Part shown: positions 1 through 3,568 of the stretch, one piece after another
Layout: each line of letters begins with the position of its first letter
Position numbering within the stretch: position 1 is the stretch's first letter
DNA from: an uncultured Gemmatimonadales bacterium
GTDB taxonomy: Bacteria > Gemmatimonadota > Gemmatimonadetes > Longimicrobiales > RSA9
NCBI GenBank assembly: GCA_963708135.1
Contig: OY970192.1
Location: 5,216,001 to 5,280,000, forward strand
Direction of reading: 5' to 3'
DNA length: 64,000 bases
Made by a program: the position numbers and the translations under genes
The notes under the pieces: generated by a model
What the model was told of the DNA's origin: nothing
What the model saw: only the letters and a program-made list of their open reading frames with translations
Databases searched by the model: none

Positions 1-55
1 GGCAGAACAGGAGCTGCTCGTGGCCGAACTCGGCGAGGGAATCGAAGAGCGGCAT
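1..55 (-). CDS. Glu/Leu/Phe/Val dehydrogenase (leucine dehydrogenase-like), N-terminal fragment running off the window edge
   Basis: ATG at 55 gives MPLFDSLAEFGHEQLLFC, resembling the 'F..M...GHEQVVFC' N-terminus of LeuDH; only 18 codons visible. Confidence 0.6.
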   Translation of the reverse strand, partial: MPLFDSLAEFGHEQLLFC

Positions 56-266
56 CCGGAGGCCCGAGGGGAAAGAGGATCGTCGCGCATAATGCAACCG
101 AGGCCGGGGGCGGGACAAGAATCTGCGCCGAACGCATGGCCTGCGCCCCACACGCCAAGTCCCTATATTGGCCTCCCCTCCCGCGCCCGCCGGAGGGTAC
201 ACCCGCAGGCAGAGCCGACCCGAACCCCCGAGAGCCATGAGACACCCTGTGTCAACCCCCCTGTGT

Positions 267-1514
267 TCAAGCAGCCGCCGCGGTGGGTTCCGCGGGGGTG
301 AAGAAGGGGATAGCCCGTCCGTGTCGGGAGGGGTCGTAGGTGGACCGATTGTGCCAGCAGCGCCACAGCACGCGGACCCAGGCTCGGGCGAGGATTCGGA
401 TTGCGTGCGGGTGATCGCAGCCGCGGGCACGGGCGCACTTGTAGACGGCGGCGGCCCAGGGGTGGGCATGGCGGGAGTTGTCCGCCCAGGTGGTGAGGGC
501 TTGTCGCAGGCGCTTGTTGCAGGCGAAGCGGCAGGCGACGCCGCGATGCTTGCCGGAGCTGTGCGTAACGGGGGCGACGCCGGCTTCGGCGGCGAGCTGG
601 GCGTCGGTGGCGAAGCGGAGCCGGTCGTCGCCGAGCTCGGCGAGAATCTGGGCGGCATTGATGGTGCCGGTGCGGGGGAAGGACTTCAGGATCTCACCGT
701 CGGGATGCTGCGCGAGGTGAGCGGCGATGAGCCCGTCGAGCTCGCGGATCTGAGCCACGAGAGGGCGGAGGACGGCGACCAGGGAACGGACGAGCTGACC
801 TTTGGTCTCGCTCTCGAGCTCGGCGGCCTGCCCTGCGGGGGCGGAGCGGAGCCGCTCGAGGAGCTGATCGACCGGCCGGCGGCCGCAGTAGGCAGTGCGC
901 TTGAGGAATCGTTCGAGGCGCTTGGGCCCGAGGCGGGCGGCGCTCTCCGGGGTGGGGTAGGCGTCCAGGAAATCGAGGGCGATCGGGCTATCGACATCGG
1001 CGAAAATGGCGGCAGCGCCGGCCCAGAAGCTGTCGAGCAGGCTGCGGAGCTGATTGGCGAGCTGGACGCGGGTCGCGACCAGGTCATCGCGGGTGCGAAC
1101 GGCGGCGCGAAGCGCCTTGGTGCGATCGGAGGGGACCCGGAGCGGCCGGAATCGATGCCCATCGGTACGCAGGACGTCGGCGAGGATGTAGGCATCACCG
1201 GGATCGCTCTTCCCCGGAGCCGCGGCGTAGCGGGGCCGGGTGGCCTTGAGGGCGTTCGGGTGGATCGGAACGACCGGGAAGCCGGCCTCGACCAACGTAT
1301 CCACCAGAAGTCCGGACGGCCGCTCGATGGCGATGGGCAGCTGCGCCGGAGAGCTGACGCGACGCAGGCGCCGGATCAGCTCACTCAGCCCACCGGCCGT
1401 GTGAGGGATGGTGAACGCGTCAACGAGGGCGCCGCTGAGATCGAGCACACAGACGTCATGCTTGTCGCTGGCCCAGTCAATTCCGACGAGGTAGCTTGGA
1501 TCCAGTCCTTCCAC
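267..1514 (-). CDS. IS110 family transposase/recombinase (DEDD RuvC + Tnp domain)
   Basis: VGIDWASDKHD, AIE, GKSDPGDA and AGVAPVTHSSGK motifs; GGAGG RBS before GTG. Confidence 0.95.
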   Translation of the reverse strand: MEGLDPSYLVGIDWASDKHDVCVLDLSGALVDAFTIPHTAGGLSELIRRLRRVSSPAQLPIAIERPSGLLVDTLVEAGFPVVPIHPNALKATRPRYAAAPGKSDPGDAYILADVLRTDGHRFRPLRVPSDRTKALRAAVRTRDDLVATRVQLANQLRSLLDSFWAGAAAIFADVDSPIALDFLDAYPTPESAARLGPKRLERFLKRTAYCGRRPVDQLLERLRSAPAGQAAELESETKGQLVRSLVAVLRPLVAQIRELDGLIAAHLAQHPDGEILKSFPRTGTINAAQILAELGDDRLRFATDAQLAAEAGVAPVTHSSGKHRGVACRFACNKRLRQALTTWADNSRHAHPWAAAVYKCARARGCDHPHAIRILARAWVRVLWRCWHNRSTYDPSRHGRAIPFFTPAEPTAAAA

Positions 1515-1544
1515 GCCTCACCTCCGAGCAGAGATTCACTCCCT

Positions 1545-1760
1545 CGCTCCGGCGTTGGAAGGTCTCACCGATCGCTCACTGAAAGGCGCTCTCGGCTTCA
1601 GGTGCCGTGGCGCTACACCCTGTGGTCGGTTGGGGCCTTCCACGCCGGGCAGGGGAGCGGGTCTCATGCGGGCCGTCGAGCGGCAAGCGACGCTGGCTCT
1701 CCCTACCCGGACGCCGAAGCACTTCTCTTGAGCGGCGCGAATCTACGCCCCGCTGAGGGT
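1545..1760 (-). ncRNA. Putative IS110 bridge RNA (target-binding loop about 1710-1645, donor-binding loop about 1646-1551)
   Basis: Two stem-loops whose internal segments match the element junctions: 1615-1624 = 242-251; 1573-1581 = revcomp of 1770-1778; 1661-1668 = revcomp of 236-243. Confidence 0.8.
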
Positions 1761-1771
1761 AAGGTGCACCA

Positions 1772-3568
1772 GTGAGCGCGCACCCTTCCCGACCCGAAGG
1801 TCCGTCCTCCTTCTCCGCTTCCCTGTCCGGCGTGGAGCCGACGGCGCCCGTGGCCGGCGCGGCGGCCGGCGCGGCGCTGCCGCCGGCGCGCCTCGACCGG
1901 CGCCGCTTCATGGCCTACTTCTCGGCGGCCGGTCTCGGGGGGACGCTCTTCCCCGGCGTGCTGTGGGGGAAGGCGCAGGGACGGGAGGTGACGAAGGAGA
2001 TGGTGAAGGATGCCGAGGCGATCGCGGACCTCGACCTCACCGATGAAGAGATCGAGATGATGCTGGACGGGTTGAACCGGAACCGGCAGGCCTATGACGC
2101 CATCCACGCGGTGACGCTGGCGAACGCGGTGGCGCCGGCGGTCCACTTCGACGTCCGACCCCCCGGGACGGAGGTGGCGACGGGCCCCGACGTGGTGCGG
2201 CCGGCGGCGCCGGGGAAGCTGCGCCGCCCGGCGAACCTCGAGGAGGTGGCGTTCTGGCCGGTGACGCACCTGGCGGAACTGGTGCGGACGAAGCAGGTCA
2301 CCTCGACCGAGCTGACGAAGATGTACCTGGGCCGGCTGAAGAAGCATGGGGACCGGCTCCAGGCCGTGATCACGCTGACGGAGGAGCGGGCGCTCCGGCA
2401 GGCGGCGCAGGCGGACGCGGAGATCGCGAAGGGACGCTACCGCGGCCCGCTGCACGGCATCCCCTGGGGCGGCAAGGACCTGCTGGACGTGAAGGGGTAC
2501 CGGACCACCTACGGCGCCAAGCCCTACGAGAACCAGACGCTCGACGACGACGCCACGGTGGTGCAGCGGCTCGACGCCGCGGGCGCCGTGCTGGTGGCCA
2601 AGCTCACGCTGGGCGCCCTCGCCATGGGCGACGTCTGGTTCGGCGGCAAGACTCGCAACCCCTGGGATCTCGAGCAGGGCTCGAGCGGCTCCTCCGCCGG
2701 GCCGGCGGCGGCCACGGTGGCCGGGCTCGTCGGCTTCAGCATCGGGACGGAGACGCTCGGCTCGATCGTCTCGCCGTCCACGCGCTGCGGCGCCTCGGGG
2801 TTGCGCCCGACCTTCGGCCGGGTGCCGCGCACGGGCGCCATGGCGCTCTCCTGGAGCATGGACAAGATCGGCCCGATCTGCCGCGCCGCCGAGGACTGCG
2901 CGCTGGTGCTGCGCGCGATCAAGGGGCCGGACGGGCAGGACCTCACGGTCTACGACGCGCCGCTCCGCTACGACGCCTCCGTCAAGCCGGCCGACCTGCG
3001 GATCGGCTACTACAAGAGCGCCTTCGAGGGCGACTACCCGAACCGGGAGTTCGACCAGAAGGCGCTGGACGTGCTGCGGGACCTGGGCGCCCGCCTCATC
3101 CCCTTCGAGCTGCCGACGACGTACCCGCTCGGCGCGCTGCGCATCATCCTGAACGCCGAGGCCGCCGCCGCCTTCGACGAGCTCACCCGCAGCGGCCGCG
3201 ATGACCTGCTGGTCAGCCAGGACAAGAACTCGTGGCCGAACTCGTTCCGCACCGCGCGCTTCATCCCGGCGGTCGAGTACCTGGAGGCGAACCGGATCCG
3301 CACGCTCATCATGAAGGAGCTGCACGAGGCGATGGACCCGATCGACGTCTTCGTCTCGCCGTCGTTCCGCGGCAGCACGCTGCTCATGACCAACCTGACG
3401 GGGCAGCCCACGGCCGTGGTGCCCAGCGGCTTCACGGACAAGGGGACGCCCGTCAGCATCTCGTTCGTCGGCAAGCTGTGGGGGGAGGGCGCCGCAGTCG
3501 AGCTGGCGCGGGCCTACCAGGCGGCGACGGACTTCAACACGAGGGTGCCGCCGCTGTTCGCCGTGTGA
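1772..3568 (+). CDS. Amidase signature family protein, Tat-like leader, GatC-like N-terminal segment
   Basis: GPLHGIPWGGKD, GSSGSSAG, GTETLGSIVSP motifs; RRRFMAYF twin-arginine-like motif. Confidence 0.9.
   Translation: MSAHPSRPEGPSSFSASLSGVEPTAPVAGAAAGAALPPARLDRRRFMAYFSAAGLGGTLFPGVLWGKAQGREVTKEMVKDAEAIADLDLTDEEIEMMLDGLNRNRQAYDAIHAVTLANAVAPAVHFDVRPPGTEVATGPDVVRPAAPGKLRRPANLEEVAFWPVTHLAELVRTKQVTSTELTKMYLGRLKKHGDRLQAVITLTEERALRQAAQADAEIAKGRYRGPLHGIPWGGKDLLDVKGYRTTYGAKPYENQTLDDDATVVQRLDAAGAVLVAKLTLGALAMGDVWFGGKTRNPWDLEQGSSGSSAGPAAATVAGLVGFSIGTETLGSIVSPSTRCGASGLRPTFGRVPRTGAMALSWSMDKIGPICRAAEDCALVLRAIKGPDGQDLTVYDAPLRYDASVKPADLRIGYYKSAFEGDYPNREFDQKALDVLRDLGARLIPFELPTTYPLGALRIILNAEAAAAFDELTRSGRDDLLVSQDKNSWPNSFRTARFIPAVEYLEANRIRTLIMKELHEAMDPIDVFVSPSFRGSTLLMTNLTGQPTAVVPSGFTDKGTPVSISFVGKLWGEGAAVELARAYQAATDFNTRVPPLFAV

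Follow-up and report, generated by a model that had tools for sequence, protein, structure and literature searches.

Closest described systems

IS900 of Mycobacterium avium subsp. paratuberculosis is an insertion sequence of the IS110 family with an open reading frame (ORF), hed, on the strand complementary to its transposase gene (Doran et al. 1997, as cited in PMC8141618). According to the available portion of PMC8141618, this second ORF spans the whole element without a ribosome-binding site (RBS) or start codon of its own, and IS900 inserts in one orientation into translation-initiation signals; the initial annotation of the DNA studied here had named the targeting of such signals and the antisense hed ORF as established. 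We found the same arrangement in an IS110-family element at the start codon of an amidase gene, in a 64,000-nucleotide stretch (the window) of the genome of an uncultured Gemmatimonadales bacterium (contig OY970192.1, positions 5,216,001 to 5,280,000). Across the relatives of this element, the antisense frame, the element length and the avoidance of stops are under selection, and a bridge RNA programs a start-like target. With moderate confidence, we favour a hed-like "translational relay", in which host ribosomes would be passed through the element to a rebuilt start codon. The translational coupling inferred in the initial annotation is supported by the checks on copies, homologues and empty sites. 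The hed ORF of IS900 is the closest precedent, and what is new is the tie to bridge-RNA targeting and the quantitative evidence of selection.

There are several differences between the two elements. The empty-site motif of IS900 is CATGNNNNNNTCTCCTT, with insertion between the Shine-Dalgarno (SD) sequence and the ATG (PMC8141618, available portion), whereas the crossover of the present element lies directly behind the start codon. The IS900 target CATGN6TCTCCTT was not found at the site here, which reads GC-ATGAG-CG, and only two relatives, L078 and L081, have SD-like targets. In addition, the present element carries a replacement start codon overlapped by the antisense stop. In the available portion of PMC8141618, hed is given as an ORF 'of unknown function'. 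A relative on a Mycobacterium avium plasmid, with 55% identity to the transposase, has the same layout over 1517 nt (ATGAC ... GTGAC), with stop counts of 0/13/12.

As far as the available portions of PMC11208160 and PMC11187229 describe them, the IS621/IS110 bridge-RNA (seekRNA) recombinases resemble the present element in an RNA encoded by the left end (LE), with target- and donor-binding loops, and in a CT core. Likewise shared with the IS621 type (PMC11208160, available portion) are a left target guide (LTG) identical to the left target, a right target guide (RTG) complementary to the right target and, in the right end (RE), a -35 element, here a -35-like hexamer. A difference is that in the present element the strand opposite the bridge-RNA gene can be read as an open frame. 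Neither 'antisense' nor 'IS900' occurs in the available text of PMC11187229. As judged mostly from abstracts, our literature search found no paper on an antisense frame in IS621/seekRNA systems; the full-text search brought up no link between IS110 elements or bridge RNAs and the replacement of start codons, overlaps of the NTGA type, translational coupling or a constraint on the reading frame of the noncoding end, and start-motif programming of bridge RNAs, NTGA preference, a mod-3 constraint and a spread over many phyla were likewise not found.

In translationally coupled gene pairs, the stop codon of the upstream gene overlaps the next start as NTGA, and the SD sequence lies inside the upstream frame. 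The overlap of orf121 and tnpA in IS91 is an example of such a stop/start overlap in the portion of its description available to us. The present element has both the overlap and an SD-like sequence within the upstream frame, but the pair consists here of a host gene and the frame of a mobile element; this element enters a natural overlap and forms it anew at its other end.

The antisense frame is under selection

The transposase codon boundaries coincide with those of the antisense ORF (237..1775), and the antisense stops in this register correspond to TTA, CTA and TCA codons of the sense gene. The initial annotation had cautioned that this register is often open antisense in GC-rich genes, and for a single locus the caution is justified: in this genome (one contig of 5.45 Mb, 72% G+C; 2259 confidently coding frames), 62% of the genes of 350-450 analysed codons are without TTA, CTA or TCA, and a TGA in frame at the junction has a prior of 1 in 3. 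This calibration on host genes rules out the open frame at the single locus as a significant observation, and this copy alone indicates only weakly that the frame is open beyond chance.

The comparative data across the clade remove the chance explanation on four independent counts. A scan of one genome per species yielded 141 relatives of the transposase, of which the best 80 (54-89% identity, L022-L101) were kept; their record titles place them in Gemmatimonadota, Actinomycetota, Alpha- and Gammaproteobacteria, Acidobacteriota, Chloroflexota, Methylomirabilota, Planctomycetota, Cyanobacteria, Deinococcota, Myxococcota and Verrucomicrobiota. The nearest homologues of the element lie in metagenome-assembled genomes (MAGs) of Gemmatimonadota, which fits the earlier expectation of a probably non-actinobacterial host. 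With both ends found in 46 of the 84 loci and copies, 39 distinct elements could be compared. The frame from the host NTG runs without a stop through both noncoding ends in 31 of these 39, the point that the initial annotation had asked to be tested in homologues, and terminates at a junction TGA that overlaps an element-borne GTG or ATG; an element-spanning ORF without its own RBS or start, as described for hed, recurs in the same 31. The other two frames of the distinct elements contain on average 10.7 and 11.2 stops, and the junction TGA is in frame in 34 of the 39.

The lengths of the elements follow the same phase. The core-to-core lengths take 17 distinct values between 1457 and 1655, all equal to 2 mod 3, and among the 15 distinct lengths from the LE core to the transposase start, 12 equal 1 mod 3 (exceptions L026, L080 and L100). 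We split the LE at the RTG, the left donor guide (LDG) and the right donor guide (RDG), anchors that were found in 37 of the 47 unique left ends. The three resulting segments vary only by threes (100/103/109/112/118/121/124/136, 28/40/43/46/58/61/64 and 47/50/53/59/68 nt), which implies at least 17 indel events, all in multiples of three, where (1/3)^17 = 8e-9; the row of the window copy itself, 110/42/42/68, was taken as a one-base offset of a fuzzy anchor. Among the 40 unique in-frame LEs with a CTCA tip, the antisense frame to the junction TGA is free of stops in 39, and the other five LE frames in 0, 0, 17, 3 and 19. Only the antisense frame is therefore held open in the LE, which identifies the constrained strand.

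The transposase gene shows the corresponding avoidance of codons. In 66 unique transposase genes, CTA, TCA and TTA together occur 16 times, all within seven divergent elements, and the number of CTA and TCA codons expected from the A-ending share of the other four-fold codons is 257. Host genes have an observed-to-expected ratio of 0.30 for the antisense-stop codons; hence, about 77 such codons would be ordinary, against the 16 seen, a depletion of about five-fold. In the LE part of the antisense frame, the entropies at the three codon positions are 0.894, 0.811 and 0.885 (p = 0.32; 35 of the 47 LEs, with 12 divergent or out-of-frame ones dropped), and no selection at the amino-acid level was detected in these 35. 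Because substitutions in the LE part show no codon-position periodicity, the residues seem not to matter while the frame is kept.

The G+C content of the elements stays within 0.62-0.73 across all the hosts that the record titles name, a cyanobacterium included. This uniformity may be a by-product of holding the antisense frame open.

Bridge RNA and the programmed target

The transposase belongs to the IS110 family (IS110 group) by its domains, with PF01548 (DEDD_Tnp_IS110, RuvC-like) at residues 10-163 (2.4e-37) and PF02371 (Transposase_20) at residues 274-358 (2e-17), both above the curated cut-offs. The genome contains four full-length copies of the element, with differences of 2 nt at most, and one further match, of 36 nt, was rejected as noise. 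All four copies are flanked by C|ATGAG ... TGAG|C, with the CT core inside the shared CTCA, which is the sequence-specific, fixed-orientation insertion of the IS110 family.

The guides were located by the rules quoted from Durrant 2024 (PMC11208160, available portion). Rfam assigned no family (window 1-2200, E <= 1), and the bridge RNA was instead identified from guide matches and covariation: a consensus fold of 17 left ends contains 50 pairs, 31 of them with compensatory changes. The LTG and RTG match the flanks best at the rnfD copy, and in gene orientation the programmed target reads CCGCATG-AG-CGACG, that is, the ATG and an AGC codon. RTG and flank covary across the 47 LEs (GCGUGAG with CTCACGC, GCUUGAG with CTCAAGCG, GGAUGAG with CTCATCC); GCAUGAG guides pair with ATG sites, GCGUGAG guides with GTG sites (L040, L044, L048, L056, L062) and GCUUGAG guides with five TTG sites in one Geminicoccaceae genome. 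The host triplet is therefore programmed. The LE tip covaries in turn with the RDG (CTCAC with CAGUGAG, CTCAT with CAAUGAG), so the triplet carried by the element is GTG or ATG, and the element-borne start is one of these two in all relatives with a CTCA tip.

Both tips, TTGACACAGGGTGTCTCA on the right and CTCA[C/T]TGGTGCACCTT on the left, are widely conserved among the relatives, and the RE end is kept in most of the 80 homologous loci. The SD-like targets of L078 (GGGGGAG) and L081 (GGAGGAG), which are matched by their guides and are nearer to the IS900 arrangement than the start-codon targets, locate the core: the two share only CT(C) between junction and target, so the core is CT. Their antisense frames are still free of stops. 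The target of L080 is an unrelated one. With a CT core, the whole G/ATG is borne by the element and joined through AG to the second codon of the host gene. The initial annotation had the GTG at 1772 overlap the TGA, as it does, and had it built from the terminal G of the element; under the CT-core model, the entire GTG comes from the element.

TAAGGTG is conserved in the relatives as RRGGT[G/A] (AAGGTG, GAGGTA, AGGGTG and others). The TTGACA in the RE is a perfect, conserved hexamer, and [C/T]ACC[T/C]T, a poor -10 element, lies 18 nt away in the circle junction.

Some relatives depart from these tips. Four elements from Actinomycetota (L094, L096, L097, L098) have the tip ATTACTGG and left flanks that end in ...CAT; judging by this side, the subgroup appears to have another core and the host ATG to lie at the left-end junction. 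The LE tip CTCA[C/T]... is doubled in L044 (2207, 2227), L088 (2117, 2227) and L114 (1668, 1733), the copies being 20, 110 and 65 nt apart, and in L114 the annotated host gene begins at the outer copy. Judging from their likeness to the target, such junctions may have received a second insertion, of which the doubled tips would be the footprints. The elements L034, L037 and L038, two from one Rokubacteria MAG and one from a Solirubrobacterales MAG, are followed by the same 40-nt flank after the right end, and may sit inside another repeat.

Insertion sites in this genome and in relatives

The initial annotation had asked whether other copies of the element insert at ATGAG starts in antisense orientation; three of the four copies in this genome do and one does not. 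Copy c1 lies at the amidase start, copy c3 at the ATGA overlap of the rnfC stop and the rnfD start (assigned by Pfam), and copy c4 at the start of a conserved 219-aa ORF, for which 20 of 25 relatives have orthologues, a tally that includes two genomes flagged as unpublished. Copy c2 (G000:C1:630482-632021; L006 6001-7540) lies within a gene for an EamA transporter on the opposite strand, not at a start, and cuts the last 95 codons off this conserved gene; the corresponding part of five orthologues is 96-105 codons long. A start-codon insertion was rejected for c2, where the plus-strand frame stops after 20 codons and the minus-strand EamA frame runs 95 conserved codons past the junction. Reconstruction of the c2 site leaves two frames open across it, one on the plus strand (999 codons from stop to stop) and that of EamA on the minus strand (820 codons); homologues exist only for the latter. 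Since about 12 to 24% of the motif occurrences in this genome are start-like, three of four copies on gene starts is only suggestive (p = 0.006 to 0.045).

Analogues of the empty site, which the initial annotation had asked to be sought in relatives, exist. The site of c3 is uninterrupted in L116 (GCATGAGC, with rnfC ending in ...GCATGA) and in L121 (CGCATGAGCGAG), and the amidase orthologues of two other genera begin with an uninterrupted ATGAGCGAG, their proteins starting MSEHPD (L104) and MSEPRE (L105) against MSAHPS here; an empty allele in the same species was not found. A near-identical copy of the element was sought in 40 relatives, and only fragments of 26-74 nt matched.

The sites of the relatives were classed by frame openness and the pattern of G+C at third codon positions (GC3), with 1666 C[AG]TGAGCG sites in this genome as the null. 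The flank behind the LE is coding in the frame of the element-borne start at 27 of 42 unique sites (null 35.5%, which includes in-frame internal sites; p = 1e-4). Among the 32 sites with both flanks, 22 are start-like, with a coding flank and an upstream sequence that is not coding in that frame (null 11.6%, p = 5e-14); the insertion into translation-initiation signals known from IS900 is thus seen here too. At 24 of 50 sites, the TGA of NTGA is also the exact stop of an upstream gene (null 5.7%, p = 4e-17), and both properties occur together at 13 of 32 (null 4.4%, p = 4e-10). The elements therefore prefer places where the stop of one coupled gene overlaps the start of the next, as at rnfC/rnfD. 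In the annotation deposited for a Variovorax plasmid, the start of a hydrolase gene coincides exactly with the ATG of the LE tip.

Layout of the element at the amidase start

The coordinates given in the initial annotation agree with the sequence base for base (Table 1), and so does the 512-codon frame that it described from the host ATG at 237 across the element to the TGA at 1773-1775. As it had also proposed, excising the element and one TGAG by script rebuilds ...GAGAGCC ATG AGC GCG CAC. The protein sequence of the amidase is unaltered by the insertion, and its orthologues in nine relatives have 60-68% identity. A paralogue of the amidase (54% identity) lies about 64 kb downstream, just past the end of the window (G000:C1:5281647-5283104), and a third one (48% identity) lies elsewhere in the genome; these two paralogues could buffer the loss of the interrupted copy.

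Table 1. Features of the element and of its target gene, in window coordinates
Feature	Position	Strand	Basis or remark
Host ATG, original amidase start codon	237..239	+	now opens the element-spanning antisense frame
TGAG, 4-nt identity common to target and donor	238-241, again 1773-1776	+	sequence
Element	240-1776		IS110-family, bridge-RNA-guided insertion sequence
Core dinucleotide CT (AG on + strand), RE junction	240..241	-	
Right end (RE), 25 nt	242..266	-	terminates TTGACACAGGGTGT beside the core
TTGACA, -35-like hexamer inside RE	250-255	-	
IS110-family DEDD transposase (bridge recombinase), 415 aa	267..1514	-	Pfam PF01548, PF02371
Left end (LE), 260 nt, encodes bridge RNA	1515..1774	-	guide matches, covariation
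RDG UCAGUGAG	1575-1582	-	complementary to left-end tip
LDG CAGGGUGU	1615-1622	-	identical to right-end tip
RTG CCGCAUGAG	1663-1671	-	matches flank
LTG CGUCGCU	1686-1692	-	matches flank
SD-like TAAGGTG	1760..1766	+	5 nt upstream of rebuilt GTG
Element-borne GTG replacing the amidase start codon	1772..1774	+	
TGA stop of antisense frame	1773..1775	+	overlaps rebuilt start as GTGA
Core CT, LE junction	1775..1776	-	
Element-spanning antisense ORF, hed-like, 512 codons + stop	237..1775	+	open reading frame listing
Target gene: amidase, twin-arginine N-terminus, 598 aa	1772..3568	+	Pfam Amidase 1.4e-75

A proposed translational relay and its alternatives

In the reading that we favour, the clade keeps its target guide on a translation-start motif, typically one where the stop and start of coupled genes overlap as NTGA. 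Recombination takes place at the CT core (AG when read along the gene) and leaves the host RBS and NTG at one junction; at the other junction, the tip of the element joins its own G/ATG to the second codon of the host gene. The host start then opens an antisense frame through the whole element, including the bridge-RNA gene, and this frame terminates at the TGA overlapping the element-borne start (G/ATGA), which the SD-like RRGGT precedes by 5 nt. Ribosomes initiating at the host NTG, or coupling from the TGA of the upstream gene, would cross about 1.5 kb of foreign DNA, terminate at the G/ATGA and re-initiate on the original gene, retaining its exact protein sequence. Continuous translation would also shield the read-through transcript of the 1.5-kb insert from polarity. 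On this view, the frame would be translated, termination and re-initiation would take place, and the cost of insertion would be lowered thereby. The placement of the RRGGT hexamer before the rebuilt start fits the relay, although its two possible roles, as an SD sequence and as a -10 box, are not separable.

A different view would be that the antisense ORF encodes a functional homologue of Hed which the element needs and produces through borrowed host start signals, the restoration of the gene being incidental. Selection on the frame across phyla would suit such a protein, as would the description of IS900 hed as an element-spanning ORF without its own RBS or start codon (PMC8141618, available portion), but we consider it unlikely: the 512-residue antisense product matched no Pfam family, the LE part lacks codon-position periodicity (p = 0.32, 35 of 47 LEs), which indicates that the frame and not the residues is kept, and the stretch opposite the transposase gene takes its sequence from that gene. 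A protein would, moreover, leave unexplained why its stop must overlap a start fused to the second codon of the host gene. The same overlap, the element-borne start codon and the AG fusion to the host second codon are not predicted by another possibility, which we regard as improbable, namely that host-driven antisense transcription or translation mainly silences the integrated transposase, whose expression would come only from the circle-junction promoter, with the open frame stabilising the antisense RNA. Such silencing would agree with the fixed orientation, in which the transposase is antisense to the host gene, with the TTGACA -35 of the RE 18 nt from [C/T]ACC[T/C]T in the junction and with the junction promoters known for IS621 (PMC11208160, available portion); it is compatible with the relay and not exclusive of it.

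The frame might also have no function at all, being the usual antisense artefact of GC-rich genes, with the hits on starts arising from a guide motif that contains ATG and from the loss of harmful insertions. An artefact would be in keeping with two figures from this genome: 62% of the genes with 350-450 analysed codons are open in this register, and 12 to 24% of motif sites are start-like anyway (p = 0.006 to 0.045 for three of four copies). This account is very improbable, however, as it is already contradicted by the codon depletion, the LE indels and the openness of the LE frame: indels occur only in multiples of three within a noncoding RNA gene, only one of six LE frames is open, and the antisense-stop codons are about five-fold below the host-calibrated expectation, including in elements with a GC3 of 0.65. 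The enrichment of sites (p < 1e-9) also speaks against it.

Several observations weigh against the relay or limit its reach. The relatives are phylogenetically non-independent, and 8 of the 39 distinct elements break the rule: L026, L054, L059, L080 and L100 do not terminate at the junction TGA, and L075, L085 and L086 hold one to four stops in the frame. L054 and L059 look broken, with early stops in the transposase frame and, in L059, an N. One of the four copies in this genome, that in the EamA gene, is an ordinary gene disruption that cuts off 95 codons. Among the relatives, 15 of 42 sites lie off in-frame gene starts, four of the five Geminicoccaceae TTGAG sites are at gene ends with no in-frame gene following, and only the inner copy of the LE tip is in frame with the antisense ORF in L044, L088 and L114. 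The enrichment at gene boundaries could partly reflect survivorship and not targeting or adaptation, and the null for the site classes rests on one genome and on the GC3 heuristic. Lastly, the SD-like TAAGGTG, which reads CACCTT on the minus strand, may equally be the -10 box of a circle-junction promoter.

Implications for the IS110 family

Whether the relay extends to the whole clade, in about ten phyla, is to us an evenly balanced question. Such elements would be 'translationally transparent', with the guide set on start or NTGA motifs, a spare start at the tip and the whole length serving as a pass-through frame in which only openness and phase matter, and they would live in operons at little cost. 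If this is true, the hed observation of 1997 would gain a mechanism and would represent a general, selected design instead of a mycobacterial oddity. The bridge-RNA gene illustrates how a noncoding RNA gene can be held open as a frame on its other strand, and it gives a clean example from nature of dual coding where selection acts on phase and stop avoidance alone. Anyone engineering bridge recombinases from this clade should, on this reading, meet hidden constraints in the LE and RE, and the element would offer a simple system for studying termination and re-initiation and the avoidance of polarity across a mobile element.

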